DNA from: an uncultured virus (IMG/VR IMGVR_UViG_3300050508_000301)
Taxonomy: Duplodnaviria; Heunggongvirae; Uroviricota; Caudoviricetes
Virus record (IMG/VR): IMGVR_UViG_3300050508_000301
Length of the DNA: 64,000 bases
Reading direction: 5' to 3' (one strand)
Shown here: positions 4,557 through 59,030 of the stretch, in pieces
How the letters are laid out: each line of letters starts with the position of its first letter
How positions within the stretch are numbered: position 1 is the first letter of the stretch
Notes under the pieces: model-generated
Database searches by the model: none
What the model was told of the DNA's origin: nothing
Seen by the model: the letters and a program-made list of their open reading frames with translations, nothing else
Position numbers and translations under genes: made by a program

Positions 4557-5180
4557 CTAGCGGCCAGAGCTGCCGAATCCTGCTGTGCCTCTTTCGGAAG
4601 GTCCCAACTCATTAACTTCCACCATTCGATAGGAATCCGCTAACAATGGCAACGGCACCACCTGCGCTACCCGATCCTGTGGGGCCACAGTCACCCAGCC
4701 AGTACTCACATTACGAACATAGGCTCCGAGAGTACCCCGGAACCCAGCATCGATCACAGTCGGGTTGACCAGCAACCCCTTCTCGAAAGACGATGAACGG
4801 CCGATGATCAAACCCCACACTCCGGGCGGCCATTCGATCGCCACCTTGCTTGGGATCCACGCCACCTCGCCCGGCCGGATCTGCATGTCCTGGGTGCCAG
4901 TGTAGTACAGGTCGTAGCCTGCATCGCCAGGGTAGGCTCGAGTGGGCAGGGTAGCCAACGGATCGGTTCGCACCACCTTAGGCTCGTTCTGAGCTGCCTC
5001 AGCTTCGTAGATAGCTCGAGCCGCTGTGTACTTAAGATCCGGATCGCCGGGTTGAGAAACAGCCGATGCGCCCGTATTGGTCATTACTCGCAGACCGGGT
5101 GGTGCCTGGGACGGGTGAGCATTGGGACCATGCAGGCCCTCCAAGAACGACTCTCTGAACTCCCGCCAGCGCCTACCCAC
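4557..5180 (-). CDS. dut: trimeric dUTPase with N-terminal extension
   Basis: Five motifs: GDAGYDL, GRSS, VIDAGFRG, DRVAQ, RGTAGFGSSG. Confidence 0.93.
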   Translation of the reverse strand: MGRRWREFRESFLEGLHGPNAHPSQAPPGLRVMTNTGASAVSQPGDPDLKYTAARAIYEAEAAQNEPKVVRTDPLATLPTRAYPGDAGYDLYYTGTQDMQIRPGEVAWIPSKVAIEWPPGVWGLIIGRSSSFEKGLLVNPTVIDAGFRGTLGAYVRNVSTGWVTVAPQDRVAQVVPLPLLADSYRMVEVNELGPSERGTAGFGSSGR

Positions 5181-6117: not shown

Positions 6118-7212
6118 CTAGCGTAGGGGCACCAGTGTATCAGGCCCAGTGGTAAACGCTGCAAGTCGGGCCGGGTGGTTCATCGTACCGAGGTCGGTTT
6201 CGATGCGCTGCAAAAACGGCCACAGCCCCTCGTGGTGGTCCAGCACCCCTCGGTCATCTGTGTCTGCCAGCTCGGGGAACACGTAGTCGACGAAGGTCAG
6301 TACCGGATGGATGCGGTCCGATGGCCACCCGTTCGCAACCATCGCTCGGTAGGCTAGGGTGGCGTCCCACTCGCCAATTCTGCGGATTTTCTTGGTGACT
6401 GTAGTCCGCTCCGGCTTGATGTAGCCATTGGTGCGGGTCGCCAATTCTTCCCAGGTCAACTCCCGATACATCGGACCGCTGTTGCCCGCTACCCGGATCG
6501 GGTAGGTGCGAAACACCGGCCACACCTGCAGCTCGATGTTGGGCGCCCAGGGGCTGAGTCCTGTCATCGCCAGGAAGTCGATCGCCCTACAGTCCGAGGA
6601 GGTGCAGTACGGGTATTCGCCTGCGTGCAGGCCCAGGCCGAACCCCTGGGTGCCTTCGATGATGACGTCCTTGTCGCTGGAGAAGGCCGAGTACAGCATC
6701 GGGGTCGTCGGCACCATGTTGATGGACATATCGTCCATGTCGCCATCCCGGGGGAGAGATTTGTACCATTCCTCCCAGGTCATCGCAGTGCGCATCAGTC
6801 GATCGGACCGGGCAGCGCCAATACCTTTGGCAGTCGACCCGATCCGGCCGGTCAGCTTGGCCTCGGCCTGTTTGTGGTCGTCAGTGATGACCGTGGCTTC
6901 AGGGTCGACCCACAGCCGGTCTCGCACTGGGATGCCGGCAGCCTCGAGCTGGTTGATCTCGCCGTACAATACATCGGGGTCGATCTCGGAGCCGGCGGCG
7001 ATCACAAGCCGACAGTCCCGGTTGGTGACTGCTGCGCAGGGGATCTGCCTCAAAGCGAACCCGACTCCATCCTGGTATGCGGTGTGACCTGCGTTCGGAC
7101 CCGCCACCCTGACCACAGCGCCCACATGGGGCGATTTGGCTAGCCATCCGGTTACGTGACCTTTGGCCTCGGACCCTGTTTGACCACCGACCACAACATG
7201 CAGATTAGCCAT
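6118..7212 (-). CDS. purZ: PurA paralog of PurZ type (probably GTP-using PurZ0)
   Basis: GGQTGSEAKG (Ser in place of the PurA Asp), GPNAGHT, IGSTAKGIG, EGTQG, YPYCTS, RVAGNSGP, TTVTKKIRR, TFVD. Confidence 0.8.
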   Translation of the reverse strand: MANLHVVVGGQTGSEAKGHVTGWLAKSPHVGAVVRVAGPNAGHTAYQDGVGFALRQIPCAAVTNRDCRLVIAAGSEIDPDVLYGEINQLEAAGIPVRDRLWVDPEATVITDDHKQAEAKLTGRIGSTAKGIGAARSDRLMRTAMTWEEWYKSLPRDGDMDDMSINMVPTTPMLYSAFSSDKDVIIEGTQGFGLGLHAGEYPYCTSSDCRAIDFLAMTGLSPWAPNIELQVWPVFRTYPIRVAGNSGPMYRELTWEELATRTNGYIKPERTTVTKKIRRIGEWDATLAYRAMVANGWPSDRIHPVLTFVDYVFPELADTDDRGVLDHHEGLWPFLQRIETDLGTMNHPARLAAFTTGPDTLVPLR

Positions 7213-7562: not shown

Positions 7563-8549
7563 CTAGACTGGCCCGCCCGAATCGCCTTCATCCATCGTTG
7601 CGCTCGGCTGTGCACTCACCCAGGCTTCGATCTTGCCGACCCGATTCTGCAGGTCAATCAGCCGCAGGGTCTGCTGGTCTTCCTTGGCGAAATGGCCGTC
7701 CATGAATCGCTGCCAGTCGTCGACCTCGGCGAAAGGCACGGATTTGCGCTGATAGCCAGCCTTATCGAAGGCAGCCATGTACTCGTTCAGTTCGGTAGCG
7801 TTAGGGAACCCTACCAACGCTCCGTCGACGAACACACGGGGCGGCTTGTTGGGAGCTGAATACACGGTGTAGTACGGCACGTCGTCTCCTAGGGGGGAGT
7901 GCAGGGCCTGCAATCGGGGGATGATAATGCCCTTGATTTGTAGAATCCGAGCATCAGTCGGACATGTCTTGCCAGTCGCTTTGGACCACTGCACACCACC
8001 GGACACCAAGTGATCCGGATAGTTACCGATAATCCCTTGCCGGTGATAGCCGATCCCCCGGTTGCTGCGCAAGGTATTGGGGATCAACACCCGAGGGATA
8101 CCGACCTGATGGCAACGCCAAGTGGACGGACAAGCAGCATGAGCCGGGACGCTGCACAGCCAGTCGACCAGCTTCACAATGGCGTCAAGCTGTTTGGGTG
8201 TCCACGGCTGGATCGGTTCGAAGCCGTTATCGGCTGTCTCAATCGAGATCACATAGGGGTTGCCGTCAAGGTTGGCGTCAGCTTGGAAGTGCAGGTCCTG
8301 CCACTGAAACACGACGCCATCGAACCCGCCGACGTCCGGTCCCCATTTGCCGCCGACCCCGAAATGGGACTCCAATCCTGCGTAACCATCTGGACGCCAC
8401 GCCCGATCGACGCTGAGCAGATAGCCAACCATGGTGTGTAGGCACACAACGTCGTGACCCACCATCGCAGATTCGGTCTGGTTGGTCGACAGCGGCACCC
8501 ATCGTGAGATACTAGGTGGAGCTACCTGCATCGGCCCTCCTACGGACAA
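7563..8549 (-). CDS. endolysin, N-acetylmuramoyl-L-alanine amidase (Amidase_2)
   Basis: CLHTMVG, SHFGV, ANLDGN, ISIET, IGYH, KTCP. Confidence 0.88.
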   Translation of the reverse strand: MSVGGPMQVAPPSISRWVPLSTNQTESAMVGHDVVCLHTMVGYLLSVDRAWRPDGYAGLESHFGVGGKWGPDVGGFDGVVFQWQDLHFQADANLDGNPYVISIETADNGFEPIQPWTPKQLDAIVKLVDWLCSVPAHAACPSTWRCHQVGIPRVLIPNTLRSNRGIGYHRQGIIGNYPDHLVSGGVQWSKATGKTCPTDARILQIKGIIIPRLQALHSPLGDDVPYYTVYSAPNKPPRVFVDGALVGFPNATELNEYMAAFDKAGYQRKSVPFAEVDDWQRFMDGHFAKEDQQTLRLIDLQNRVGKIEAWVSAQPSATMDEGDSGGPV

Positions 8550-9745: not shown

Positions 9746-10261
9746 CTACTCTAGCACACGCTTTGACACCGGGGCAAGCGGGCTATCAGCAGTAGCCAGA
9801 TGATGTTCAGCCAGTCCAGGAGACGGATGCTTCTGCTCCAACAGCCACCAATAACCATGTACCACCGCATCCCGGGCATGCCCCCGCTGATCAGTCGGAA
9901 TGTGTGACATGTCCGGCATCTCAAACCCGTGCGCCCGCATACGTGCGAAACCAGGCCGTTTTATCAGCGCAGGCTGCTTAACGCAAGGAATCTTACGATG
10001 CAAGCATTTGTGTTTGACAGCACCAATAACCTCAACTGTGGTACATTCCGACCACGTAACCTGTTCGCCATAGTTACGCCACTGCTCGATGACCACATGG
10101 TCAAGCTGGGCGTTATCGAGCATAGACCAGAACCATTGCACCGCTGGGTCTGGCTCCAACACGTTCACCTCGATCACGGCGAAGCCCCACATGATCACAT
10201 AACCGACGTGGCGCTCACCTGGATCAATAGCCAACACCCTCGTGGTTTCGAGGAGCCTCAT
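9746..10261 (-). CDS. RuvC-like Holliday junction resolvase
   Basis: VLAIDPG, VVIE, HARDAVVHG. Confidence 0.78.
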   Translation of the reverse strand: MRLLETTRVLAIDPGERHVGYVIMWGFAVIEVNVLEPDPAVQWFWSMLDNAQLDHVVIEQWRNYGEQVTWSECTTVEVIGAVKHKCLHRKIPCVKQPALIKRPGFARMRAHGFEMPDMSHIPTDQRGHARDAVVHGYWWLLEQKHPSPGLAEHHLATADSPLAPVSKRVLE

Positions 10262-10569
10262 AGCTTATCGTGGTTCCGAGCCACGGCTGCGTTAGCGTGC
10301 GCCATGGCCTCGTCGATCAACTTAGTCAGAGCTAGCGATAATTCTCGACCCTCTGGGCAGATCTCCACGTAGATGTGCGCCAGATTGGCAGTCGCTACCC
10401 GGATCCGATTGTGCAGCTCGACAGCCTTCTCACCGGGCGGGTAATACCGGACATCTCGATCGATCCGGTCATGTAGCTCTTGCTTAGCCATCCGTACCTC
10501 TCTCGCTATAGGGAAATGCAAACCCACCAGAGCGGGCGTATTCGGATTCCACGCATTCATGCGGCCCAC
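10258..10569 (-). CDS. Acb2/Tad1-like helical hairpin protein
   Basis: YYPP..CPEGRELSLALTKL..EAMAHANAAVAR. Confidence 0.6.
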   Translation of the reverse strand: MGRMNAWNPNTPALVGLHFPIAREVRMAKQELHDRIDRDVRYYPPGEKAVELHNRIRVATANLAHIYVEICPEGRELSLALTKLIDEAMAHANAAVARNHDKL

Positions 10570-12461
10570 GGCTTCGCATCAACCTTCCATGGGATGACAT
10601 GGCTTTTGTCCCACCCACCGAACAGCTCCATCAGCCACTCCTCCATGAGAGCAACTACGAGCTTGACCAACGCCATCCCCTCCTCGCCGGCAGGCACCTC
10701 CAACATCAACGAGTCGTGGATCTCGTTAAGCATCAGGCCTGGGTACTCGTACTCGACCTCGACCTTGATGATCTTCATCACCTCGGCCACATTGCACTGG
10801 ATCAGCTGGTTCATCGCCTTGTACGGATGGAAACTGCGTTCCATATCCGAGAACCAACGGCGACGGCCAGTCACCAACTGCACATAGCCGAACCGCTTAA
10901 CCCGGTACTCCTGGTCCCGATACAGCTTTACGAACTGGGGGAACGTAGCCCGGTAATCGTCGAGCCACTCTCTGGCCTGGGATTCCGGGACGACGATATC
11001 CCCCTGCTCCTTAAGCGTCTGTCGAAACTTTCTCGGGCCAGCGCCATAAAGCGTGGCGAAGGTAAGCCTCTTCGCCAGGGTACGCCATTTCGACCAATCT
11101 CCGTCATCAGGGGAGACCCCGAACACTCGTATGGCAGTTTGACCGTGAACATCGTCACCTGCTAAGAGGACCTGCCGCATCGGCTCACATTCAGCACAAT
11201 GCGTCGCCACACGGACTTCCGCCTGGGAGATGTCGACCTCCCAGAGTTCGTGATCCGGTTTGGCCTTGAAGAAACTTCGTATAGAAGGCACACCAGCTGG
11301 GAGTCTGAAATCGTGCGGGATCGCCTGTAGCTGTACCCGCTCCACGGAGAGTCGTCCAGAGATCGTCCCCCGACCGCTCCCTTGCTGACCATCAGCTTTG
11401 GTTTGGTGGTAGGATGGCCGGAGTCGCCCATCTGGACCACATAGCTCAGGCCAGTTCTCGTACCATTTCGTTAACGCCGAGCTGAGGTTGCTGAGCTGCT
11501 CATATTCGGCTGCTCCCGGGATATTGCGTGCACGCAGCTCCCGCACCGCATCCTGATCAACCGACGGAACCGGGTTTTTGCCTTCGGTCCAGCTAACAGG
11601 CTCCGCAGCCTGTTTGGTAAAGAACCACCACCTGGCTCCTGCCGGGGTCGGATCACGCCGCCACTCTCGTTTGAGCTGGAGCCGCAGGAAGTCCCGTTCC
11701 CGCCGGAGCTTGGCCGCAGCCTCCCTACAGGCCTCGACGTCGAATCCGACGCCTCGGGTTTCCATCCGATACAGGCAGATCGCAAGGTCGATCTCTCGGT
11801 CAATCAACTCGAACGGCTCACCTACTGAACCTTCGTCGATCAGCGACCTCTGGTGGTGGTAGAGCCGCAGACATTGTTCGACGTCTTTGGTGGCGTAGGG
11901 AGCAACCAGGTCCCAGGGTGCGAGGTCGTAGCGGGGGTTCCCTCGAGCGTCCTTGTGTTTCTTGAGCCATTGGGCGAGGCGGCGCTCTGCGTCTCGCTCG
12001 GTCTCGCCCCACAACCGCTCACAGGTCGGTTTCAATCCGGTCGGATAACCCGGGAAGATGATCGGGCACACGACTTGCGTATCCCACATCACATTATTCG
12101 ACAGGTCAACGCCCTGCTCGTATTTCCGGTGCCCAGCCCGCATCATCAAAAGATCGAACTTGACGTTGTGGGCCATGAGCCGCTGGCGTCTCAACCACTG
12201 ACACAGCTCGACCCACTCGGCCTCACTCAGGTTCGGAGCGTCGTCGAAAAAACTGGCTTGCAGGCCCTTCGCATCCGGCTTGTCAAGCACGCCCTGATCG
12301 AAAGCAAAACACCGGGTCTGGATCGCTCCCGGATCGCCCCAAGCTACGGTTACGATCGCTGGTCGTGCGCCTTCATCCGTGAATAGGCCCGAGGTTTCAG
12401 TATCGAACGCTACGATCAGACCGCTACGGTCGGGGAGCTGATCGGTGATAGCGGTCGGCAC
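10557..12461 (-). CDS. family A DNA polymerase with 3'-5' exonuclease
   Basis: DTETSG, HNVKFD, YATKD; TISGRLS, DISQAEVR, RTLAKRLTFATLYG, IHDSL. Confidence 0.95.
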   Translation of the reverse strand: MPTAITDQLPDRSGLIVAFDTETSGLFTDEGARPAIVTVAWGDPGAIQTRCFAFDQGVLDKPDAKGLQASFFDDAPNLSEAEWVELCQWLRRQRLMAHNVKFDLLMMRAGHRKYEQGVDLSNNVMWDTQVVCPIIFPGYPTGLKPTCERLWGETERDAERRLAQWLKKHKDARGNPRYDLAPWDLVAPYATKDVEQCLRLYHHQRSLIDEGSVGEPFELIDREIDLAICLYRMETRGVGFDVEACREAAAKLRRERDFLRLQLKREWRRDPTPAGARWWFFTKQAAEPVSWTEGKNPVPSVDQDAVRELRARNIPGAAEYEQLSNLSSALTKWYENWPELCGPDGRLRPSYHQTKADGQQGSGRGTISGRLSVERVQLQAIPHDFRLPAGVPSIRSFFKAKPDHELWEVDISQAEVRVATHCAECEPMRQVLLAGDDVHGQTAIRVFGVSPDDGDWSKWRTLAKRLTFATLYGAGPRKFRQTLKEQGDIVVPESQAREWLDDYRATFPQFVKLYRDQEYRVKRFGYVQLVTGRRRWFSDMERSFHPYKAMNQLIQCNVAEVMKIIKVEVEYEYPGLMLNEIHDSLMLEVPAGEEGMALVKLVVALMEEWLMELFGGWDKSHVIPWKVDAKPWAA

Positions 12462-12500: not shown

Positions 12501-14120
12501 CTAGGCGGTCTTGCGGAACTCGCAGTCGACGAAATGCGCAGCCCCAGCGTTCAAACCGGTCTTGCGGAGGGTGACTGAGTAGGGACCAGGCGTATCGATG
12601 GTGATGGTGCTCGAGAGCGCAGTACCAACGATGTTACCAGTCGTGCCAGTCGATGCACCGGTCGTACCCAAGCTGGTACCGTTGACGAGCACCTGCCATT
12701 CGCCGCCCAGCGTGGTGACTTCGCCATACCGCAGTGCGGGAGTGTAGACCCCTCGGTTGAACCACTTGCGGTGACGCCGTTCAGCTACGGTCGAGGATGC
12801 CGGAGTTGCATCCCGCCATGTGCCGTTCGCAGCGGACACCAGAGCGAGGGATTGGGCGTAGTTGAGCCGAAAGTCGGGCGGATCCAGCGCATTGATGTAG
12901 ACGTTGCCTTTGGAGTCCCACAGACCGGGTTGTGGAACATCAGGGATCACGAATCCCTCGATAAAGGCGGCGACGATATTGGCCACCCACTGCTGGCCTG
13001 CATCGTTCATATGGCTAGCGTTGAGGAAGATGTCCCAATCGACACCCTTGCGAGCCATGAACCGACGCAGATCCAGAACCGCCACCCTGTCTGGGTTGTA
13101 TCGATTCCGCACCGACCACATCTGATCGACATAGGCGTCAGACTGGGTGGGGAATGCGAGCAACAGGAACCCAGGATCAGTCGTGATCCCTAGCGCATCC
13201 AAACCGAGGTCGATGGTGGTGATGATCGACAGCAGGTTATTAGCATAAACCCCTGGATCGACCGCACCAACTTGGTCGTTAGCACCAAGCCCGATGATGA
13301 ACAGACTGGGATAGGTTCCGGTCGGTTGGTTGGCGACCACGTTTAGCAGCGAGGTCGACCAGTTCGGCCGGATGATGTAGTCATTGGTCTGGAACCCAGC
13401 GTGACCGAACGCCATGGTCCGGACGATCCGACCCGGAACACCCAACGAGAAGATCTCGTTATCAGTGACAACTGCGCCCTCGAGCAGCAACGTACCAGAC
13501 GTGCTCGTGATAACCAGGGTATGGAATCCGTACCCATCCGCCAGGTAGGTTTGGATCCTGCCTGGCAGCTCAGTGCCGTTCGCAGCTATAGCGGTTTGAG
13601 CTGCGCCGTCGAGAGTGACCGCTGCGGCTGCTGGCCCGCCCGGAGTCCGAGTATAAACGACATTGATGGATTCACCAACGAATGTGATCGTCGCCGTCGA
13701 CCCGCTGACCATGGTCACAGCATGGAGATCGCCACCATGCGTCACATCCGCCGCCGGAGCAACTGAATACACCCAAGGAGCCTGCCCACCAGGCCACGAC
13801 CCCGCTACCGTGTCTGAGAACGTACCGGTCGCTGCCGGGATGTACTGGGTCCCGCCCATCCGCTGTCGGTTCAATCGACGAGCCAGATAGCGAGTCCACA
13901 TGAACTCACGTTTGGTGGGAGCAAACGCTTCGGTCAGGCTGTCGCCTGGGCCGATCACCACCGTCGCAGATCGAGCTTCCAGGTCGGTCGGGTGGTCGGT
14001 CCGTGCTCGAGCCGCATCAGTACGGTATCGAGACAACGCACCCGCTGCCAAACCCTCCATCGCTGCCTGTTGAAGCAGCTCTGGCAACCCCAGCGTGTAG
14101 ACCGGTATGGTGGGTGCCAT
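12501..14120 (-). CDS. SGNH/GDSL hydrolase-domain protein, possibly virion-associated
   Basis: GDSLT, GHAG, GAND, NASHMN; beta-rich inserts. Confidence 0.72.
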   Translation of the reverse strand: MAPTIPVYTLGLPELLQQAAMEGLAAGALSRYRTDAARARTDHPTDLEARSATVVIGPGDSLTEAFAPTKREFMWTRYLARRLNRQRMGGTQYIPAATGTFSDTVAGSWPGGQAPWVYSVAPAADVTHGGDLHAVTMVSGSTATITFVGESINVVYTRTPGGPAAAAVTLDGAAQTAIAANGTELPGRIQTYLADGYGFHTLVITSTSGTLLLEGAVVTDNEIFSLGVPGRIVRTMAFGHAGFQTNDYIIRPNWSTSLLNVVANQPTGTYPSLFIIGLGANDQVGAVDPGVYANNLLSIITTIDLGLDALGITTDPGFLLLAFPTQSDAYVDQMWSVRNRYNPDRVAVLDLRRFMARKGVDWDIFLNASHMNDAGQQWVANIVAAFIEGFVIPDVPQPGLWDSKGNVYINALDPPDFRLNYAQSLALVSAANGTWRDATPASSTVAERRHRKWFNRGVYTPALRYGEVTTLGGEWQVLVNGTSLGTTGASTGTTGNIVGTALSSTITIDTPGPYSVTLRKTGLNAGAAHFVDCEFRKTA

Positions 14121-14977: not shown

Positions 14978-15008
14978 GCGCCCATTTTAGCACGTCCTTG
15001 ACTCTCTG

Positions 15009-15170
15009 TCAACTGCGCCAACGCTCGACGATCTTACGAGATTCTTTCAGCTCCTCGGCGATCCCGATAAGAGCGTGCAATATTCCGTTGAGCATCAAAA
15101 CCTGTGGAGTGTTCCCATCAGCCTGTCCGAACTCCTGCGAGAATCGGCGTGCTTGTTCAATATGGTCCAT
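15009..15170 (-). CDS. 53-aa hypothetical protein
   Basis: MDHIEQARRFSQEFGQ..; TGCTAGACT -10 box just upstream. Confidence 0.5.
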   Translation of the reverse strand: MDHIEQARRFSQEFGQADGNTPQVLMLNGILHALIGIAEELKESRKIVERWRS

Positions 15171-15189: not shown

Positions 15190-15498
15190 TAGCCGTGAGA
15201 CTGCTGGGCCCCCGGAGCACCCCCTGCTCACGGAGCGACTTGCCTCCGAGACAAGCCCCCGGATATCTTTTTTTCAAAAAGCCAGAGAGCAGTCTCACCA
15301 GTCTCCCCCGGTCAGAAGCAGTCTCAGGGGCAGTCTCATAGCAGTCTCGTAGGTCCAAGAGCCAGTCTCAGAGCTATATTTAATAAACAACATTCACTAC
15401 GAGACGTAGTGGTCTCACTACGAGACTGCGTGTTATGCGGCGTGAGACTGCCCGAGACTACGGGGGTAGTCTCGCCCCCGGCAACACCGCAGTCTCAG
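15190..15498. repeat. probable replication origin: AGTCTC/GAGACT iterons around an AT-rich core
   Basis: About 15 GTCTC/GAGAC copies, mostly AGTCTC left and GAGAC right of TATATTTAATAAACAA (~15375-15390); directly downstream of the primase-helicase gene. Confidence 0.65.
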
Positions 15499-18014
15499 CC
15501 CTGAGCCTGCTCGATGATGCGAGCAGATATCGCCAGAGGAATCGGATAATAGTTCTGCTGAGTACGCTTCTGCGCTTCACGCTGGTTCACAGCGAACTTT
15601 TTCCGGTCGGCGTAGCTCACGCCCATAGCGTCCCTGTGCCGCAGGAGAGTGGTGGGGTCAGCGAATCCCTTGGTACGGGCATCAGCGCCACGGTACTCTT
15701 TAGCCCACCAGTCAGCGACGTAGTTGGGGTGCCACCACACCTGTCCGTCTCCGTCGACGAAGACTGGCATGTGGCCATGCGCACTTTCCGGGTACAGCAG
15801 CTTTCGCCACAGCTCAGGCAGGATCCGATTCACCAAGTAATCATCTTGTGGAGCGTCCTGCTTGCTACACCATTCGTCGACGATCTCGGCGTGCCACCCA
15901 TCCCCGGTGATGAGGTCGAGCAGCCTCGCTCCTGCCCGCAGGACTGTGAGTTTGTCGGCATGCCTACCGGCAGCGGATGGCCGCAAACCCTTCCACTGCT
16001 TCTCCACGGCAGGCCAGTGGTGTAGCGCTTTCTGGACGTACCAACCGGCGATTCGCCACATCTCGGGGTAGCGCTGCTTCAGCTCGAGGATGTCGTCCCA
16101 CTGCGGGTAGTTGCCTTTACGGGATTGCCGGTCTTTGGCTGGTGGGACGTCGAGCCGTATGAGTCGGTCCATGAGCGCCATCTGGTCCGACAGCCCGGGT
16201 AGGCTTTCGCCGGTGAGCAGGACTGGCGCTACGAGCTGTACGCTAACCGACCCGAAGTTGTCGATCCCTTTCTTGGAACGGGAGCTTTCGTTGGTCGCTG
16301 TACGGATGTCTTGGTACAGTCGGGTAGCGTCGTCCAGGTCGTCGATCCAGACGATCCCTGACCGGTTGGCGGCCATGCTGTCTCGGAAGCTGGCTGCGGT
16401 TTGGTGGCTGCCGAGCTTGGTGGCTCCGTTCAGCTTGACCATTAGGGCGAAGAATCCTTCGCTCTTACCGGTACCGGACATCGCCTCGATGGCTATGAAG
16501 GGGAATCCGGCGATCCTGGGCATGAGCTGTGCTTTCACCAAACATGCGGCCCACCACGCTCCGAACACCGAGCATACGGTGTCGTCCTGGAACGTCAGCG
16601 TTTCTTTAAGCACCATCTGGGCGTCGGACCATTTGCCCTCGAACCCGTATTGGTGCAGCATCGGTTCACGCTTGCGGATCGCTGGGTCGGGCATCCAACC
16701 GCCCTGCGGGTTTAACCCCTGATCGGTGATCACGCCTTCGTCGCATACGAACCCTTCGGCTGCGTCGTGCCATCCCATGAATGGTACGATCTGCAGCCTC
16801 GGGGCGTCCTGGACCGACAGGTAGTGGCCAAGCCTGCCAGCCGGGTTGCGGGCCTGCAGGTGCCCGAGGTCGCCTGCCACTGGCCAGGTGTTCAGCTCGA
16901 GCGCTCGCAGGCGTGGACCCAGCGCTCGACTGTTGCCGAACAGCGATGCCGGTTCGACCACATATCTGGTGTCTTGCAACGCACTCTCGATCTGCAACCG
17001 GTAGTACGTGTTGAAGTCCTCATCCGAGTACTTGCCCAGCACATGCATATCGAAGTCGCTGCACGGCTTGATCACCTGCGATTTGGCGTCTTTGGTACCG
17101 ACCTCGCACAGGCACATCAGCTTGTCGCCACCGCCTGCAAGCCAACCGGTCGCCTGGGTGGGCAGGTCCTCGATCCCGGCTGCTGCTTGCTGTTCAGACT
17201 CCCAGATTGAGTTGGCTGTCTTTATTACCTCGTCGGAGCCAAGCGGATCGTCAAGCGACTGGTTGATCGCCTCCACCAGCAACAGGAACCCATCCTGGTG
17301 CAGCTTGCCTTTGGCCAGGTGCCCAGCGACCCTCGTCAACCAGTTGTTTCGTCCTCCCTGGGCAGGTGGCGCTCCCAGGAGTTGCGCTAGCGTAGAGCGG
17401 GTACCGGTGCCGCCCCCAGCCCCGCTCTGTAAATCCCCGCTTGACGGAGCGGCCTCCCGCAACGCTTGGTACCAGCCATCCGGTAGCTCCGCCAGCTCCG
17501 TAGGTTGCGGGACCCGCTCGAGAAGCTCTCCGTCGGGACCGTACCACATATAGGTGGTACCCAGTTTGTCGTGGACACTGGGCCACACTAGCCCGTAGCG
17601 GTGGTGGAACTGCACCACCTCGATTCCGGGACCCAGCTCGGTGATCAGTTCGGCGTCGCCGGAGACCCGAAACCAGCGGATCCCGGAGATCCGGTCTGCG
17701 ATCCGAGCCGAGGAGCGGTAGGTCCTCGGTAGCTGCCCTAAACGCTGTTCCCAGTCGTCGAGGGTGGCTGCGCCCTGTTTATCGTCGTAGGCGTCGACGT
17801 CGATTCCGATGATCCAGCTCGGTGTGCGGAGAGCTACGTTGGAATCCGAGAACTGGATCGCCCATTTACGGTAGTCGCTGTCGTCGGGCGTGACGCCACG
17901 GCGTCCGGTGTAGCCCGAAACAGCCAGCTCTTTGCTGTTGCGCTTGGTTGGCAGGACGTTCGGCCAGCCAGCGGCACGGTATTGCAGGTAAGCCCGCTCG
18001 TAGATCTCTGTCAT
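15495..18014 (-). CDS. bifunctional primase-polymerase / helicase
   Basis: NVALRTP..GIDVD prim-pol N-terminus, GGRNNWL PriCT-like region, AMSGTGKS Walker A, WIDD Walker B. Confidence 0.85.
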   Translation of the reverse strand: MTEIYERAYLQYRAAGWPNVLPTKRNSKELAVSGYTGRRGVTPDDSDYRKWAIQFSDSNVALRTPSWIIGIDVDAYDDKQGAATLDDWEQRLGQLPRTYRSSARIADRISGIRWFRVSGDAELITELGPGIEVVQFHHRYGLVWPSVHDKLGTTYMWYGPDGELLERVPQPTELAELPDGWYQALREAAPSSGDLQSGAGGGTGTRSTLAQLLGAPPAQGGRNNWLTRVAGHLAKGKLHQDGFLLLVEAINQSLDDPLGSDEVIKTANSIWESEQQAAAGIEDLPTQATGWLAGGGDKLMCLCEVGTKDAKSQVIKPCSDFDMHVLGKYSDEDFNTYYRLQIESALQDTRYVVEPASLFGNSRALGPRLRALELNTWPVAGDLGHLQARNPAGRLGHYLSVQDAPRLQIVPFMGWHDAAEGFVCDEGVITDQGLNPQGGWMPDPAIRKREPMLHQYGFEGKWSDAQMVLKETLTFQDDTVCSVFGAWWAACLVKAQLMPRIAGFPFIAIEAMSGTGKSEGFFALMVKLNGATKLGSHQTAASFRDSMAANRSGIVWIDDLDDATRLYQDIRTATNESSRSKKGIDNFGSVSVQLVAPVLLTGESLPGLSDQMALMDRLIRLDVPPAKDRQSRKGNYPQWDDILELKQRYPEMWRIAGWYVQKALHHWPAVEKQWKGLRPSAAGRHADKLTVLRAGARLLDLITGDGWHAEIVDEWCSKQDAPQDDYLVNRILPELWRKLLYPESAHGHMPVFVDGDGQVWWHPNYVADWWAKEYRGADARTKGFADPTTLLRHRDAMGVSYADRKKFAVNQREAQKRTQQNYYPIPLAISARIIEQAQG

Positions 18015-18544: not shown

Positions 18545-18866
18545 AGTGCCGCAGCAGCGCCATCCGCTCGAGTGCCTCTTCCAGGGTGAACCGCCACACT
18601 GTGTCCTCGTCGAGCTGGGCCATCTTGTAGAACTCGACCTGAGTCATGGCCGCTGACTGTCCATTGGAACGATCGACCGCTAGGGTGAAGTCGTAGTCCG
18701 GGTGCTCCATCTCGACCCAGGCGTGCCAGTGGCGAATACCAGCGATCGGTCCTTGACCCGCAGGCACGCCGTGCGCGATGTAGACCGTAACACCACCCCC
18801 GGCAGCAGCGCATTCGATCGCGGTCTGCACTGCTACTGGGAAGCAGTTGCCGCCTTCAACGGCCAC
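18522..18866 (-). CDS. hypothetical protein (possible Cys-His-Asp papain/transglutaminase-like triad)
   Basis: GNCF..HAWVE..D. Confidence 0.55.
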   Translation of the reverse strand: MAVEGGNCFPVAVQTAIECAAAGGGVTVYIAHGVPAGQGPIAGIRHWHAWVEMEHPDYDFTLAVDRSNGQSAAMTQVEFYKMAQLDEDTVWRFTLEEALERMALLRHYGPWVYG

Positions 18867-19032
18867 GAGGCTGCTCCTTCACGAACTGCAGAGCTTCGTG
18901 CAGGGCTTCGGGGTCGTAGCCGGCGAGGAAGTTGAGCGCCGTGTGAGCTTGCTTCTCGGTTAGCTGGTAGGATTGCTCGATCAGCTCGTCCATGGTCGGG
19001 ACGGGGGTGGTGGTCTCGGTGTCGGTTGTCAT
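18856..19032 (-). CDS. hypothetical protein, leaderless
   Basis: ATG 6 nt after TTGACA-N18-TATGAT. Confidence 0.65.
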   Translation of the reverse strand: MTTDTETTTPVPTMDELIEQSYQLTEKQAHTALNFLAGYDPEALHEALQFVKEQPRGR

Positions 19033-19106
19033 GCTGTCATCATAACACATCGCTTGTCTCCGTGTCAAGTATGGCGATGCCCCCGACCGGAGCCAGGGGC
19101 ACCACC

Positions 19107-19295
19107 TCATTCGCCGAGTTTGCGGTAGATTCGGGGAGTCGGGCCTACGGTCGCTTGGACTCGAAGGAATCCGCTCCACAGACGGTTCGCCTCATCAATG
19201 CTCATGCCGTCCTTGTACGCAGGCCCGGTGAGCTTGGGCCAGGATGCGGGGATGACGGTCTGGCATTTCTTGGGCGTCTTGGAGGGTGCAGCCAT
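19107..19295 (-). CDS. hypothetical protein
   Basis: Strong SD GAGGAGGTG. Confidence 0.6.
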   Translation of the reverse strand: MAAPSKTPKKCQTVIPASWPKLTGPAYKDGMSIDEANRLWSGFLRVQATVGPTPRIYRKLGE

Positions 19296-19431: not shown

Positions 19432-19611
19432 CTAGTCGAACTCCCCGTCTTTCAAACCCTTCACAAAGGCCTCCCACTCCTCGGTGGTAAACCTGAGGAT
19501 AGGGCCTGTCGGGTCTCCGGAGTGTCTAACTAGTACCGTGTCCCCGACATTAACCTCAACGCAGTTGCTTTCGCCGCTATAGCTTGATTTGTGCCATACT
19601 GACTGCTTCAC
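19432..19611 (-). CDS. DUF397 protein
   Basis: Manual translation WHKSSYSGESNCVEV..VLVRHSGDPTGPILRFTTEEWEAFVKGLKDGEFD. Confidence 0.9.
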   Translation of the reverse strand: MKQSVWHKSSYSGESNCVEVNVGDTVLVRHSGDPTGPILRFTTEEWEAFVKGLKDGEFD

Positions 19612-20233: not shown

Positions 20234-20622
20234 TCGATTCCTGCTTTCGTTTGGTTTGACTAGACGCTTGCGATGGCGATGACGCCAATGACCACAACAA
20301 CCACAACGAGGACCAGCGCCAACACCATCGTCACGTACAGACCGTAGTAGTTGTCGCCCATCAGATACCCGTCGCAATATCGAAGAGGAGCACTGCTCCC
20401 GCCACCACGATGATGTAGATTACCCATATTACGACGGCCATACAGACTGCCAACACCACGTCCCCAAACTGGTTGCCGGTATACCGGGTATCGTCCATCA
20501 GAGACCCGTCCCCGCTCGGAACAGATAGGCTGCCCCGGCTAGTAGGACCAGCGACAGAGCTAGGCATATCGCCCACAGCAGTATCTTGACGGGCGAGGCC
20601 AGGTTCTCCCAGTTCGGGTCCA

Positions 20623-20994
20623 TCAGCAGCCCGCTTCGGCGCAGTTGGGCAGGACGGGGCAGCGACCGCAGATGGCGCAGGTGGGGTCGAGCGTCTGCTT
20701 GCAGAAGTCGCCCAGGTCGAGGGGTGCGTACAGCCCGAGTGCGTGCAGGGCCTGGGCGTCTTCGGTCCGCTGCTCGAGGCGTAGCTCGGTCAGGGTCTCT
20801 TCGAGCCGACCGATCTCCATAATAGTGTCAATCTCGGTCGTGCTGGCGTCTTCGAGCACTTCGTCGATGTCGTCGAGCAGCTCATCAATGCCATCGAGGG
20901 TGGCGTCTCGGTCGGTGTCGGCCTGGACGTGTTCCGCCTCTTCGACTTGCTGCTCACGCTCGGTGGTGTGCCGGGTTTTGTGCGTGCGCTCCAT
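20623..20994 (-). CDS. Pup-like protein fused to a Cys-rich tail
   Basis: IDELLDDIDEVLE resembles the Pup Mpa/ARC-binding helix; no terminal GGE/GGQ. Confidence 0.6.
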   Translation of the reverse strand: MERTHKTRHTTEREQQVEEAEHVQADTDRDATLDGIDELLDDIDEVLEDASTTEIDTIMEIGRLEETLTELRLEQRTEDAQALHALGLYAPLDLGDFCKQTLDPTCAICGRCPVLPNCAEAGC

Positions 20995-21252
20995 AGGGTC
21001 CCCACCCTAGCACACAGTTTGCCTAGGTGTCAAGTTGCCCGCTGAGCCTACGCTTCGCTTCTTCATGTTCCTTCGCTATTGCCACCTCGAAAGCATCATG
21101 AAATCCGCCGAGTCTTCTGGTCGCTGCAGCGGCAGCGACCCCCAACCCGCCCATGCGTTGGCCTATGCGTCGGAATCCGAGTCTAGCTCGGATGACCCGC
21201 ATGTCCCGTTCGGCGAGCTGTTTGGCTCGCCAGATGGCAGCGTATTCGACCG

Positions 21253-21711
21253 TCATCTCAATCGATCCATCTGCTGTAATGCGTCCATCCGCCGTTGGAT
21301 CTCGGCGTCTGCTTCCTGCGCTGCTGTAGCCATTGCTGGAATCCACACGGTAAGCCAGTTCGCCAGCTGGTCTATCCCCTGATGGAACGAGGTGCTGTTG
21401 GCGTACAGCTCTCGGTGGTGGATGGTGAGTGCTCCACGGAACACGGCCACACGGGTGCCCGCAGGTGCCTCGATGCAGAAGGACGCCATGCTGTAGACGG
21501 TGGGTATGGCGACGGCCTCGGACGTCACGCCTTCGGCGAGCACCTTCGGTTGCGTCTCGGCGAGCACCCGGGCGATGAGCGGCGAGATCTCGGACATGAG
21601 GTCGGTGACCCAGTCGTTCGTCTCGTCGGACTGGCCGTCGTTGCCGATGTGGCGGTCGACGACCGACCGAATGTCTTCGTACAGGTCCTCGGGGATGCCG
21701 TCAGCCGTCAT
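21253..21711 (-). CDS. hypothetical protein
   Basis: From MTADGIPE; operon ORF. Confidence 0.55.
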   Translation of the reverse strand: MTADGIPEDLYEDIRSVVDRHIGNDGQSDETNDWVTDLMSEISPLIARVLAETQPKVLAEGVTSEAVAIPTVYSMASFCIEAPAGTRVAVFRGALTIHHRELYANSTSFHQGIDQLANWLTVWIPAMATAAQEADAEIQRRMDALQQMDRLR

Positions 21712-22258
21712 GGTCCGTCTCCGGGGTCCCAGCCGGCGAGGGGCCGGCGACGGGCTCAGGGTCGTCCTCGGCCTCCCAGCCGCACCAGTGGCAGCAATCG
21801 TGCGTCCACGAGTGATTGCAGTGATGGCCACAGGGTCGCTGAGACTCCGGACACTCGCCTTCTAGGCCCTCTTCTTCGCCGCAGGTGGCGCACTCGTCAT
21901 CAAGCTCGGAGGTCGGGGCGGGGGTGGGGCTGTCGGTGGAATTGCTCGGCACGTTGAGCCCACCCCCACCGCCTTCGGCGTGGATGTCCTCCATGGCAAC
22001 GGTGGCTTCGCCTGCCTTGGCTGGCCAGATGCCGACAACCATCCCGGCGTCGTTGCGGGGTAGACGGGGGTAGTCCTCAGTGACGTCCGGGGTGACGTCG
22101 GCGAGGGTGAAGCGGCCGGGCTCGTAGCGCTGGAGGCAGCGGACCACCGTCGAACGCAGCCGGGGTGGCATCGGCTTCAGATGCAGGTCCGGGACCAGGT
22201 TCGCCAGATGGCCTACCAGCCAGGTCAGATCCTCAACATCCAGGTCAACGGAGTCCAA
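21701..22258 (-). CDS. hypothetical protein with Cys/His-rich C-terminus
   Basis: CPESQRPCGHHCNHSWTHDCCHWCG. Confidence 0.6.
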   Translation of the reverse strand: MDSVDLDVEDLTWLVGHLANLVPDLHLKPMPPRLRSTVVRCLQRYEPGRFTLADVTPDVTEDYPRLPRNDAGMVVGIWPAKAGEATVAMEDIHAEGGGGGLNVPSNSTDSPTPAPTSELDDECATCGEEEGLEGECPESQRPCGHHCNHSWTHDCCHWCGWEAEDDPEPVAGPSPAGTPETDHDG

Positions 22259-23421: not shown

Positions 23422-24333
23422 TCAGGCGTCGGCCTCCTCAGGCGCATCGGTGTCTGGTTCGTCGACGACGGGATCCGCCACCTTGGCGATATTGCGCCTA
23501 CGGGCGATTGCGGCTAGCTGCAACGAGTCCTTGCCTTTGACGATCTTCCCGTCGAGGTAGCCCAACACCCGATCGAACCCGGGGTTGATCATCCGCTTGG
23601 GGAGGACACCGAACCGGTCCTTGGCTGTGAACCGACCAGTGGGTCGGGTCAGGCCCATGAACTCTTCGCCTTCCCACTCGATCAGATCGGGATCGTTCTC
23701 GAAGCTTTCGGTTTGGCAGTAGATGATCCAGTCCATCCAGCCGGCGAAGCTGGCGTTGACCGACGGGGATAGCGCAGGATTGACCTGGATGGCGCCATCT
23801 TCGTCCTTGTCCCGTCGAGAGTGGGCACCCAACAGCAGGTGGCACCCCAACCCGTGATACAGCCGCAGGAGTTTCTTCATCATCTCGACGACCTCGCCAC
23901 GGTCCTCGAGGTAGACCTCAAAGTCGGAGCGTTCGTTGTCGGCGCCAGTGCGCATGGCTTTGCGTTCGGTCTTGGCCAGCGATCGAGGCATGACCTCGTC
24001 GAGGAACCCCTCCTGGCTCTTGGTGGTCGTGTCCCAGGCGACCGCAAAGATCGGTTCTCCGTCAGCCAGCCGAAGCAACAGCTCTTGGTGCATGTCGATC
24101 ATCTCGGCGTAGCTGAGTGCCGGGTATGGCTCGATGTTCTTGGTCGGGATGCCATGCCGGCGGAGCGCTGCGGCTTTCAGGCCGTTGTCGGCGTCGAGGT
24201 AGACGACTTTCCCGAGCTTGGCGGCGGCGGCGATGGCTGTGCTCTTGCCTTTGCCGGGGTTGCCGTAGTACATGGCCCGGTGGTGTACTTGGACGTCGTC
24301 GAGCGTGGGTCGCTTCACTGCACTAAGCGTCAT
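23422..24333 (-). CDS. AAA_24 / Sak4-like ATPase (recombination)
   Basis: YGNPGKGKST, YLDAD, WDTTT, AH, AKDR. Confidence 0.8.
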   Translation of the reverse strand: MTLSAVKRPTLDDVQVHHRAMYYGNPGKGKSTAIAAAAKLGKVVYLDADNGLKAAALRRHGIPTKNIEPYPALSYAEMIDMHQELLLRLADGEPIFAVAWDTTTKSQEGFLDEVMPRSLAKTERKAMRTGADNERSDFEVYLEDRGEVVEMMKKLLRLYHGLGCHLLLGAHSRRDKDEDGAIQVNPALSPSVNASFAGWMDWIIYCQTESFENDPDLIEWEGEEFMGLTRPTGRFTAKDRFGVLPKRMINPGFDRVLGYLDGKIVKGKDSLQLAAIARRRNIAKVADPVVDEPDTDAPEEADA

Positions 24334-25578: not shown

Positions 25579-25725
25579 TTTGTTATCCTAACACGTAGGT
25601 TGACTGGGTGTCAAGTGGCTAATCGGAGTTCCGGTCGATCCAGAACATCACTCCTAGTAGCACAAATCCTGCGACAGCCACAAGGACCCCCAGAATCGAT
25701 AGTCAGCATAGTGCTCTCCTCTCAG

Positions 25726-34463: not shown

Positions 34464-34513
34464 AGGAGCACCGTAGCACACGCCTTGACCGGTTGTCAAG
34501 CCCTGGGTTCGGG

Positions 34514-37314: not shown

Positions 37315-37353
37315 GCCGACATTATAACACACAACATGACTACGTGTCAAGTA

Positions 37354-37623: not shown

Positions 37624-38388
37624 TCATGCTCCCCACGGCAACCCGTGCTTGGAAGCACAGACCGGGCCGTAGCCAACTTCGGTGCTCTCGGGTGTATCGA
37701 TTGGAGTGGAGCAGAAGCAGCACCGCTCGAACATGTGACCGAACTCGGCTGCCTGCTCGGCAGTGATCTTGTTGTCGGGGTTCAGCTTGCTGATGGCGCC
37801 ACGGTCGTAATCGAATCGGGTGCCGTCCCACTTGCAAGCGTAGAGGTTGCCGCTGCCCTGGGCTTGATGGACCCGGTAGTACTCGCCATTCACGACGTGG
37901 ACGTCGCCCTTGACCAGCTCCGGCTTCGTGGGTTCGATGTGCGAGACCTTGACGGCGTTCGGCTGCTGCTTGAGGATGTCGATCATCGAGCTGGCGCCAC
38001 TGGCCGGATTGGGCAGGGTGTTCAGCGTGGCGACAATCTCGTCAGCATCGGCGTCGGGCGTCTTCTGCGCCAGCAGCGACCGCAGGAACGATTCCTGTCG
38101 CTCGCTCATCGGAGGCGGACCTTGCGCCTTGAGCAGCCGGTCGATGGTTTCGCTGGCGGTCGACTTGCTCATCGCCTCAGCATCGGCCTCGGCCACGCCC
38201 AGGCGGACCAGGAACGCCACCTGCTTGTCGGTGGCCCGGGGGCCTCGAGCGAGCGGGCTGGCCTCACGTTCCATCGTGTGGCGAGCGGCGAAGCCAACGC
38301 AGTCGTGGCTGAACACTTCGGCGAGGGTGTCGAACGCTCGGCCGCACTCACCGCAGGTTTCCTTCTCAGTGTCGGTGGTTGATGTCAT
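37624..38388 (-). CDS. DUF6011-like Zn-finger protein
   Basis: CCFC..S.EVGYGPVC; ATDKQ/MSERQ repeats; leaderless TTGACA-N18-TATAAT. Confidence 0.75.
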   Translation of the reverse strand: MTSTTDTEKETCGECGRAFDTLAEVFSHDCVGFAARHTMEREASPLARGPRATDKQVAFLVRLGVAEADAEAMSKSTASETIDRLLKAQGPPPMSERQESFLRSLLAQKTPDADADEIVATLNTLPNPASGASSMIDILKQQPNAVKVSHIEPTKPELVKGDVHVVNGEYYRVHQAQGSGNLYACKWDGTRFDYDRGAISKLNPDNKITAEQAAEFGHMFERCCFCSTPIDTPESTEVGYGPVCASKHGLPWGA

Positions 38389-38528
38389 ACCGACATTATA
38401 ACACGGTAGTTGACCCCGTGTCAAGGTACGCAGAAGCCGCCCCGCCGGTACACCCTGTCAACCCCACGTCAGACGTGTGCCCGGTTTATTCCGGAAGTGT
38501 GCCGACGGGACGGCTTACGTCCCAACAA

Positions 38529-41210: not shown

Positions 41211-41467
41211 GGCTGACTTCCTTTCGTTGTCCTCCATGACCATTATATCATGTCCGTGACTTGGTGTCAAGTCCCCATTCCTAAGATCTTCATCCGTCCA
41301 GGCCAGACCGAGCGCCTCCTCGAGCGTGCCGGCGAAACCCACCGTTTCGACAGGTATAGTCCGATGAACTACCTTCCATCGACCATGCTCCGAGGAGGAG
41401 ACAGCCGATACAAGGTAGTTCCCGGACCTGTAGAGCCAGCGGCTTACTTTCTCGAACTCTTCTGCCA

Positions 41468-51900: not shown

Positions 51901-52332
51901 CTCTCGCAGTGCTGCATCGGATTGACGCTGGGCCTCCTGGAACGAGTTTTGGATGTCCTCGCCCGTGGATTCCGCCTCGGACTCGACGAGCGCAAACAGC
52001 TCCGGTCCGCCGATATCCCGAAGGATCGAGTCGACCTGGCGCTGAGCCTCGTTGAATGAATCTTGGATGTCCTCTCCAGCAGATTCGGCCTGAGTTTCCA
52101 GCGGCTTGAACAAGCCCGCCTTACCGATGTTCTGCAATGCCTCTCGGGCGTCTCGAGCCGCTTCCTCGAAAGCAGCCTGGATCTCCTCGCCACTGGCCTC
52201 AGCCGCTTTAGCCGTCTTGCCCTCGAGGGTAGAAAGGAATGAACCAACTTGTTTATCGGCTTTGGAGGTGTCTAGCTCGACCTCCACGAAAGCGGTGGCG
52301 ATGGGTCCGCCAGCTGGCGACGACAGCGACAT
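48988..52332 (-). CDS. tape measure protein
   Basis: FAATTPFE, SKGKISSEEL, long Ala/Leu amphipathic repeats. Confidence 0.95.
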   Translation of the reverse strand: MSLSSPAGGPIATAFVEVELDTSKADKQVGSFLSTLEGKTAKAAEASGEEIQAAFEEAARDAREALQNIGKAGLFKPLETQAESAGEDIQDSFNEAQRQVDSILRDIGGPELFALVESEAESTGEDIQNSFQEAQRQSDAALREIGGISSFSPVVAEAEAAGESIQNSFQEAQRQSDQALRGIGGVDAFASVEASAAAASSSVERSFGRTRTLFSSLATGAKLFAASLAIGGAAIVGFGLKSAANLEQTQIGFESLLGSAEAAGAFIKDLQKFAATTPFEFQGLANNARQILAMGQAAGFTQKDVLPLLTTIGDLTSVLGQPPEAIDRVVRALSQMSSKGKISSEELLQIAEAVPGFPVFQAMADGLGITTQALQEQLQKGAVPAKEGIAALVKGMQEFPGAAGAMAKQSQTLTGLFSTFKDTVSLSLTEAFQPLVPTIKEQLGLAVPAIQGALGTIAPALSGITTNLITILGGIVGELGPAFGTALQGVAEGLTPIAGALVDAFVSLKPALKSLMPLFSALGEAAAPVITLLGDALGAVLPPIIAALDLLVRALTPLINVMVEVGSALLDALGPAFADILRVVGEVAQSLAPVLTDIASLLGDLLVDAAKTLGPILAQVAEILGGALLQVLEVLRPALKEVGKALVDGLQKVLEALAPALPELAEALGQIAIALAELLVAVVPLLVPLIKLAALLLSEIGAPVLVALAKAVAILATGLAKLATIISTNIQPTLSLAADLFRSLWQDILVPLGLFIAAAFITPFIALGTLFTQVIVPAVQAVANVFLTIWHTVLEPIVNFLTQVFIVALKVWIAIMIGPLIIAVASAIEILKVLWNAVLVPLASFIATVLTPVIRTVASVLQTVFKVAVVAVTTVATFLWQNVLVPIGRFLQSTFKAAVGVGTAAWNAFKAAVDVVKSAVLAVKDKAIQPVINFIKATASPIISTFEAAWDGVTSAVRTARNVIKSIIDVIKSAIDKAGDLISKLKNIPGVGVVGDVLGSLQHGGIIDKDQLAALHAPEVVIPLNEPARAAALAQESGLLDQLIGQATPSTDNIGHATLGGSTFSGSGVVIQELNVNVNGPISQEEATATADRLSDAIQVALARKKIQFAVGTT

Positions 52333-58672: not shown

Positions 58673-59030
58673 ACCTGACGGGCCTAGGAACAGGCGCAGG
58701 TGCCGGTTCGTTGGGCGCCAGCCAAACCCCCGCAGCGACAAACGCTGCGATAGCCACGTTCAACCACAGCGACCCTGCCATCTTCTGACCATTGGCCAGA
58801 TACCCGGCCAGCAGCCCCAAACCACCGAGAGCGGCTGCTGTGATCGATTTGCTGTAGCTCCACAGGGGCAGCCCCAGGTTGGCAGTGATGTACACCTGGA
58901 ACGCTGTGAAGCCTGCAATCGCCACCTGAACCCACTCGGGGTTGGTGATCTTGTCGTCGGTCCATGCGGCGGCGATAGCCATCACAACTGCGCCGACCAC
59001 GGCGACGACACCTTTCATGTATGCACTCAC
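58671..59030 (-). CDS. holin-like 4-TM protein
   Basis: Internally duplicated K(A/G/S)xxA..W..(A)PN pattern of actinophage holins. Confidence 0.7.
   Translation of the reverse strand: MSAYMKGVVAVVGAVVMAIAAAWTDDKITNPEWVQVAIAGFTAFQVYITANLGLPLWSYSKSITAAALGGLGLLAGYLANGQKMAGSLWLNVAIAAFVAAGVWLAPNEPAPAPVPRPVR

Follow-up and report, generated by a model that had tools for sequence, protein, structure and literature searches.

The Pup-like gene and its promoter

The window (the whole stretch of viral DNA analyzed here, 64,000 nucleotides) contains on its minus strand, at 20623..20994 (stop codon included), an open reading frame (ORF) for a non-conjugatable Pup-like protein of 123 amino acids. Pup is known as a tag that is made by the cell and conjugated. 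The phage protein starts with a basic and then acidic stretch (MERTHKTRHTTEREQQVEEAEH...), has the sequence LDGIDELLDDIDEVLED at residues 33 to 49 (with IDELLDDIDEVLE at residues 36 to 48), and ends in ...CKQTLDPTCAICGRCPVLPNCAEAGC (i.e., ...LHALGLYAPLDLGDFCKQTLDPTCAICGRCPVLPNCAEAGC, the last residues being CAEAGC). Neither GGQ nor GGE occurs anywhere in its 123 residues, a GG[EQ] terminus is found in none of the eight members of its family (0/8), and the overlapping minus-strand frames contain no Pup-like end that could act as a cryptic tail. The features of the gene, together with examples of further promoter sites, are as follows.

20914..20994, minus strand: counterpart of the Pup threader, residues 1 to 27, basic then acidic (MERTHKTR...), aligned to the Pup N terminus
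20842..20913, minus strand: counterpart of the Mpa/ARC-binding helix, residues 28 to 51, DRDATLDGIDELLDDIDEVLEDAS, corresponding to Mtb Pup 21-51
20740..20841, minus strand: helix continuation or linker, residues 52 to 85, standing where the second helix and the GGQ/E of Pup were
20713..20751, minus strand: conserved element, residues 82 to 94, ALHALGLYAPLDL, family consensus LGLY[AG]PxDL
20641..20679, minus strand: Cys knuckle, residues 106 to 118, CAICGRCPVLPNC, C-x2-C-x2-C-P-x4-C (Cys spacing C-x2-C-x2-C-x5-C)
21004..21033, minus strand: promoter, -35 element TTGACA, 18-nt spacer with TGn, -10 element TAGGGT
41242-41270, 38395-38424, 37321-37350, and 34470-34499, minus strand: examples of other promoter sites with the pattern TTGACA-N16-19-TANNNT
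25585-25614, 19039-19068, and 14984-15012, minus strand: further examples with the same pattern

A reading made from the sequence alone (here the sequence-only reading) had proposed that a Cys-rich module takes the place of the GGE/GGQ end and that the gene has its own promoter, and both proposals hold. Where Pup carries GG[EQ], the phage protein has a long predicted helix, the LGLYAPxDL element, and the knuckle, and the sequence TTGACA-N18-TAGGGT at 21033-21004(-) ends 9 nt 5' of the ATG. This site belongs to a family: the pattern TTGACA-N16-19-TANNNT was matched 16 times in the window, compared with 0.47 matches expected, and none of 100 shuffles attained 16 (0/100). Fifteen of the 16 pattern rows lie on the minus strand, where they represent 14 distinct sites; an ATG follows the -10 element after 4 to 9 nt at 9 of these 14 sites, and after exactly 6 nt at 7 of them. 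The consensus of the promoter family is TTGACAc..aGTCAA....GTGnTAnnnT. A simple sigma-70 scanner did not list the site at 21033-21004(-), because its rule for the -10 element requires four of six matches to TATAAT and TAGGGT has three. The pattern and its spacing support a strong promoter belonging to the Pup-like gene itself, which would be of a near-leaderless type. Leaderless mRNAs are an actinobacterial habit, and the phage appears to make many of them. It follows from the promoter-to-ATG distances that several starts in the mechanical ORF list are too long (e.g., that of 18856-19179).

Downstream of the Pup-like gene lies a hydrophobic ORF of 41 codons, 20498-20623(-), whose ATG overlaps the TGA of the Pup-like gene, starting on its A; this overlap suggests that the two genes are translationally coupled. 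A second small hydrophobic ORF follows at 20361-20576(-) (71 amino acids). No family match was found for either ORF, and the two may encode translationally coupled membrane peptides.

The window is a large part of the genome of an uncultured actinobacteriophage. Nearly all of its genes lie on the minus strand, and the Pup-like gene is located in an early/replication module, away from a structural region at 44-58 kb:

23422-24333: Sak4-like annealing protein, on one flank of the Pup-like gene
15495-18014: primase-polymerase, on the other flank
10557-12461: DNA polymerase A (PolA), in the same early/replication module
48988-52332: tape measure gene, in the structural region
56270-58027: capsid-like gene, in the structural region

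The protein matches of the window among GenBank phages were all to actinophages, with identities of ≤47%, and a nucleotide search of the window against GenBank phages returned nothing. These actinophage-only protein matches and a DUF397 gene are the sole hints of the host; the DUF397 family is typical of Streptomyces-like actinomycetes. The sequencing runs listed as carrying this DNA are nine DNA runs, all labeled rhizosphere metagenome, and there is no RNA run among them.

Relationship to Pup, family, and C-terminal module

By profile comparison, residues ~3 to 51 of the protein are homologous to Pup, and this region comprises the N-terminal threader and the Mpa/ARC-binding helix. The sequence-only reading had seen Pup mirrored in the N-terminal half of the protein and had named a search with the Pup Pfam profile as its check, the absence of HMM similarity to count against it; the similarity was found. 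Pfam PF05639 (Pup) aligned residues 4 to 51 with profile positions 7 to 56 of 69 (E = 2e-4; 22.7 bits, the gathering score being 27), TIGR03687 gave E = 0.015 (15.2 bits versus a cutoff of 41.45), and 7 of the 8 family members matched the Pfam Pup profile at E ≤ 0.1, the best of them at 1.5e-5. When the eight-member family was compared with 30 Pups by hhalign, the probability was 97.5% (E = 5.4e-12, 48 columns), with family columns 4 to 51 paired with Pup columns 9 to 57 of 69. The six best matches of a PDB search with the family profile (E ≤ 10, 24 sequences) were Pup chains, including 3m9d (Mpa:Pup) and 7px9; phmmer with the single window sequence found no Pup in the PDB. A profile of the window protein and its relative P0002, searched against 1.84 billion representatives, matched seven proteins at E ≤ 0.001, namely, P0002 to P0007 and P0008, which is a genuine Pup of 71 amino acids ending in ...YVQKGGQ (E = 5e-4).

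As a control for composition, an HMM was built from the 30 Pups and the first 60 residues of the window protein were shuffled 2,000 times. The window protein scored 25.4 bits and the shuffles reached a maximum of 11.0; since none of the 2,000 composition-preserving shuffles attained the real score, the likeness to Pup goes beyond chance. The same control on the other seven members gave 0/500 for each. In every comparison the alignment ended at ...VLE(D/E)A, and the residues downstream had no counterpart in Pup.

Residue correspondences were counted on the PDB profile alignment and corrected for a two-residue insert seen in hhalign. The helix numbering coincides: residues 39 to 50 of the window protein (L39 L40 D41 D42 I43 D44 E45 V46 L47 E48 D49 A50) align without gaps to L39-N50 of Mtb Pup (L39 L40 D41 E42 I43 D44 D45 V46 L47 E48 E49 N50), and 8 of the 12 residues are identical. 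An in-cell NMR study lists as perturbed by Mpa the Pup residues K7, L39, E42, I43, D44, D45, L47, E49, A51, and 53-64 (PMC3769308); of these, the window protein shares L39, I43, D44, and L47 and has conservative replacements at E42, D45, and E49. At the sequence level, residues 28 to 51, aligned without gaps, thus have the amphipathic helix that joins Mpa/ARC (Mtb Pup 21-51), and residues 3 to 27, which align to the Pup N terminus and are of low confidence or non-helical in the models, have the threader feature. According to three reports, the disordered N terminus of Pup is the threader that is engaged by the pore loops, and Pup 21-51 forms one helix that lies antiparallel on the Mpa coiled coil (PMC8755798, PMC3511204, and PMC8223512).

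The second short helix of Pup (about Pup 51-58; EEFVRxYVQK) has no counterpart in any alignment of the window protein. This helix and the GGQ/E end serve PafA and Dop and by NMR also touch Mpa, the in-cell study describing contacts of Pup 52-64 (PMC3769308). With both elements missing, the phage protein should neither be ligated by PafA nor be processed by Dop. Retention of the threader and the Mpa helix, combined with loss of the second helix and GGE, makes Mpa/ARC a likelier partner than PafA/Dop.

The AF2 model of the window protein (eight-sequence alignment) predicted a single uninterrupted helix of 77 residues (9 to 85), with pLDDT values of 90-96 over residues 31 to 80 and 94-96 over residues 28 to 51, which are helical. 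The first two 10-residue blocks had mean pLDDT values of 53 and 61, and the Cys region was modeled with low confidence. In the model of the family member P0004, residues 1 to 19 were disordered and non-helical (pLDDT <50), the Pup-like helix spanned residues 20 to 58, the sequence LGLYGPSDL was flanked by two short helices, and the Cys knuckle contained small beta elements (pLDDT 73-78).

The phage protein and Pup have in common the basic/acidic disordered N terminus and the helix ...LDxIDELLDEIDxVLE. In contrast to Pup, which is a stand-alone protein of about 60-70 amino acids encoded in a dop-pup-prcBA locus, the phage protein has 123 amino acids with a C-terminal module, lacks the second helix (EEFVRxYVQK) and the GGQ/GGE, and is encoded among replication genes (Sak4-like, primase-polymerase, and PolA). 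Because the GGQ/E end, the second helix, the locus, and the size of Pup are all missing, we class the protein as an architectural/viral variant and not as Pup. In a word-limited search, 64 natural longer Pup proteins (≥126 amino acids) were found, nearly all of them single-sequence clusters and most of them with Pfam Pup-ligase plus Pup or Pup plus proteasome domains; presumably these are merged neighboring genes. No recurrent N-terminal Pup fusion like the phage protein was seen in that search.

The family to which the protein belongs is small. A word-indexed search of 5.8 billion proteins returned only the window protein itself and P0002 (53% identity), and an exhaustive profile search of 1.84 billion representatives added five representative clusters beyond P0002; P0003 to P0007 and P0012 are 30-43% identical to the window protein. 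P0002, P0007, and P0012 are encoded on contigs of 72,737-75,439 bp, the contig of the window protein itself having 73,354 bp, and a single phage lineage is suggested for these four proteins; the longest contigs of the remaining family members measure 1.2-5.7 kb. When metagenome contigs were searched with a degenerate DNA pattern, one contig was found that represents the same phage, with an identical protein and the same gene neighborhood. No match was found among GenBank phages (with the window gene as DNA and protein and with P0004 and P0012 as protein), no family member in IMG/VR (with the family alignment and then with P0004, P0012, and P0007), and none in GTDB genomes or in metagenome contigs searched with P0004. 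The nearest virus record, of 32 kb, lacks the Pup-like gene.

Three blocks are conserved in the family, with variable linkers between them: the N-terminal motif ME(R/Q)T.(K/R).R, the Pup helix, and LGLY[AG]PxDL together with (N)PxCxxCGxCPxxxGC. The N-terminal motif is conserved family-wide, even at overall identities of 30-43%, and variability within the family is greatest in the linker that follows residue 51, which is shorter in P0003 to P0005. The window protein and P0002 stop directly after the Cys knuckle and have no tail, whereas P0003, P0004, and P0005/P0012 continue with an extra acidic tail that contains DG(D/E)xF and whose last residue is aromatic (...PVLF, ...PYPF, or ...MWDY). To us, these acidic aromatic tails bring to mind docking tips at the C terminus, for example SSB tails.

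Within the C-terminal module, C106, C109, C112, and C118 are common to the window protein and P0002. An alignment of 11 sequences showed that in LGLY[AG]PxDL the D never varies and the G, L, Y, P, and L hardly do, and that in the knuckle a C, the G, and the P are invariant and two more Cys residues nearly so. Searches of Pfam with the whole protein and with C-terminal fragments of 46 and 75 amino acids returned no family for the module, the PDB sequences contained no match outside the Pup part, and the ESM Atlas offered no named neighbor, its best score of 0.78 falling short of the lead threshold. A Foldseek search with the P0004 model gave a best E value of 2.4, with weak rows that included zinc-binding ribosomal proteins and RING domains, none of them significant, and no paralogue was found within the window. 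From the arrangement of the Cys residues we infer that the knuckle binds metal, either Zn or Fe-S.

Membership in the WhiB-like family (PF02467) was considered and rejected. The sequence CGRCPVLPNC of the phage protein resembles part of the motif with which WhiB binds its cluster, C-x2-C-P-V-x3-C, and PHROG returned weak WhiB-like matches to the Cys motif (E = 0.25 and 5.1). WhiB-like proteins have the spacing C-x(14 or more)-C-x2-C-x5-C and, downstream of it, a G[VI]WGG turn; in the phage protein, the first Cys lies 2 rather than ≥14 residues upstream, there is neither a GVWGG turn nor a basic tail, and no Pfam match to the family was obtained at E ≤ 10 with the whole protein or its C-terminal fragments.

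Possible roles of the Pup-like protein

Our main reading, to which we assign a probability of roughly 0.45, is that the protein is a phage-borne, non-conjugatable descendant of Pup that would dock on ARC/Mpa without a ligase, with its Pup part serving as an inbuilt degron or as a handle for delivery. The architecture is that of engineered linear Pup-substrate fusions, in which an N-terminal Pup is peptide-bonded to a passenger and which, as reported for Pup-DHFR, were recruited and degraded without ligation (PMC8755798); ligation-independent docking and pulling in from the N terminus are proposed on the basis of this likeness. In contrast to the engineered fusions, the phage protein is natural, has only the Mpa-acting two thirds of Pup, and carries a tiny Cys-rich passenger. 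It would be produced early from its own leaderless promoter, dock directly on the host ARC/Mpa while unattached to any other protein, and be pulled in N terminus first. Through the Pup part, the Cys-rich module would have a degron or delivery handle encoded in its own gene, and it would either have a short, host-controlled lifetime or drag along and strip whatever it holds; competition with pupylated host substrates would be a side effect. The sequences themselves show the Pup homology over residues ~3 to 51, the loss of the tail, the three blocks conserved in a small phage family, and the promoter; we infer ARC/Mpa binding, translocation, metal binding, and a target for the C-terminal module.

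This reading is supported by the confinement of the Pup homology to the Mpa-acting parts, by the Mpa-perturbed Pup residues that are kept, by the AF2 models of two family members, in which a disordered N terminus leads into a helix predicted with confidence, and by the gene's own early promoter in the replication module. The degron or handle role is favored because family members of 30-43% identity still share the threader motif at the N terminus, which a passive coiled-coil decoy would not need; a protein that the ATPase itself pulls in would explain this conservation somewhat better. On the other side, the match to Pfam (22.7 bits) falls short of the cutoff of 27 and the single-sequence phmmer search of the PDB lacked Pup, none of arc, pafA, dop, and prcAB is located within the 64-kb window, and the predicted helix extends to residue 85 and could suit another coiled-coil partner. 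In addition, the missing Pup residues 52-64 are among those that contact Mpa, and free Pup-GGQ was not degraded according to the in-cell NMR study (PMC3769308), so that a Pup-like front end is no guarantee of tight binding or turnover. A complex prediction of residues 1 to 90 (with the family alignment) and two copies of ARC_RHOER 1-225 scored 0.16, the mark being 0.32; run without controls, it speaks neither for nor against binding.

The sequence-only reading had proposed as the role either a decoy inhibitor of the Pup-proteasome system or an adaptor that would deliver a bound host target for degradation. The main rival, which we consider rather unlikely, is such a decoy inhibitor, which would occupy the coiled coils of ARC/Mpa and maybe jam the pore, the metal-bound knuckle serving as a stall, with the consequence that recognition and degradation of pupylated proteins, perhaps also of those from the phage, would cease. 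The identical evidence for Pup homology applies to it, and phages are known to inhibit the host proteases Lon and FtsH, which counts in its favor. Without GGQ/E, such a decoy would not be consumed by PafA, its early expression from a putatively strong promoter would suit it, and the conflict between phages and the Pup-proteasome system is treated in a 2026 review as a "compelling but untested hypothesis" (PMC13696103). However, a pure coiled-coil blocker needs no conserved N-terminal threader, and a threaded protein is consumed unless it is stalled, for which a Cys knuckle of ~13 residues would not be an obvious unfolding barrier. The conserved LGLYAPxDL element is also left unexplained by a decoy.

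A repurposed helix is in our view unlikely. Residues 28 to 85 would here form a coiled coil with another host or phage protein or with themselves, without any link to ARC/Mpa, and the Cys module would be the functional core, for example, of a small regulator. The one uninterrupted helix of 77 residues predicted by AF2 would fit this reading, as would the weak WhiB-like matches of the Cys motif in PHROG and the loss of the C-terminal residues 52-64 with which Pup contacts Mpa by NMR (PMC3769308). It is opposed by the extent of the Pup similarity, which covers the basic threader motif at the N terminus besides the helix, and by the distribution of conservation, the Mpa-facing helix positions being best conserved and the region after residue 51 being the most variable of the family.

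Competitive inhibition of PafA and/or Dop, whereby the first helix would occupy the Pup groove and block pupylation or depupylation, is very improbable, as the protein has neither the second helix nor the GGE that inserts into the active site and the N terminus, which is conserved in the phage family, is irrelevant to these enzymes in Pup. For this inhibition speaks that, on residue ranges that we assume, DELLDDIDEVLE overlaps the first of the two short helices formed by Pup in the PafA/Dop groove. Two helices are described for Pup bound in this groove (PMC8223512). That the gene is non-functional or its Pup likeness a low-complexity acidic artifact, as the acidic, compositionally biased region and the Pfam score below the cutoff might suggest, has next to no probability and is effectively refuted by the protein-level conservation in six further clusters, the hhalign probability of 97.5%, and the shuffle control (0/2,000), with the identical copy on a second metagenome contig and the dedicated promoter also opposing it.

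Returning to ligase-independent docking on ARC/Mpa as the preferred reading, an extended form of it, which we regard as doubtful, is that the protein is a "degrader", in which the front two thirds of Pup are joined to a small metal-binding module for target recognition and would carry a specific host protein (e.g., a defense or regulatory factor) to the ARC/Mpa-proteasome. Eukaryotic shuttle proteins with UBL domains (Rad23/Dsk2 type) likewise combine a non-conjugatable copy of the tag with a second module and dock on the proteasome by themselves. The likeness would be a functional analogy only, with no relationship of sequence or fold, and in contrast to the UBL shuttles, Pup also supplies the initiation region, so that the Pup-like protein would itself be threaded.

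Searches of the literature turned up neither a relative of Pup encoded by a virus nor a natural Pup fusion that cannot be conjugated. The question of whether phages are in conflict with the Pup-proteasome system gains a concrete, cloneable handle from the present gene, which reproduces precisely the portion of Pup that acts on Mpa/ARC. Should the protein work in the proposed way, it would provide a compact natural degron for actinobacterial genetics, and if it is a degrader, it would represent the first case of a virus hijacking the Pup-proteasome system of bacteria and, among prokaryotes, a natural equivalent of UBL shuttle factors and PROTAC-like adaptors.

Other genes of the phage

Several small Cys-rich modules are present in the phage. 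Among the genes on the minus strand are those for a DUF397 protein (19432-19611; E = 2.5e-20), a Cys/His-rich ORF product of 185 amino acids (21701-22258), and a protein with a C-terminal DUF6011 (37624-38424). Between the polymerase and primase genes, 12501-14120(-) encodes a protein of 539 amino acids in which a GDSL lipase/acylhydrolase domain was matched slightly below the cutoff (E = 2e-7).

An adenylosuccinate-synthetase-like gene is located at 6118-7212(-) (Pfam E = 1e-43), and its product shows 46-47% identity to proteins of Microbacterium and Streptomyces phages annotated as "PurA-like / 2-aminooxy adenylosuccinate synthetase"; a dUTPase/dCTP-deaminase-like gene lies nearby at 4557-5180(-). 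We take these two genes to have the look of a PurZ-type module, in which case the phage DNA may carry 2-aminoadenine in place of adenine. The gene at 10258-10569(-) encodes a protein of 103 amino acids with an Acb2/Tad1 hairpin domain (PF24729; E = 1.8e-14) and is a candidate anti-defense gene, whose product would be a sponge for CBASS/Thoeris signaling nucleotides. An amidase-type lysin is encoded at 7563-8549, its best match being the lysin of a Brevibacterium phage (35% identity). Three or four glycosyltransferase genes and a C-methyltransferase gene adjoin the capsid genes at 59027-63965(-), and this cluster suggests that the virion may be glycosylated.
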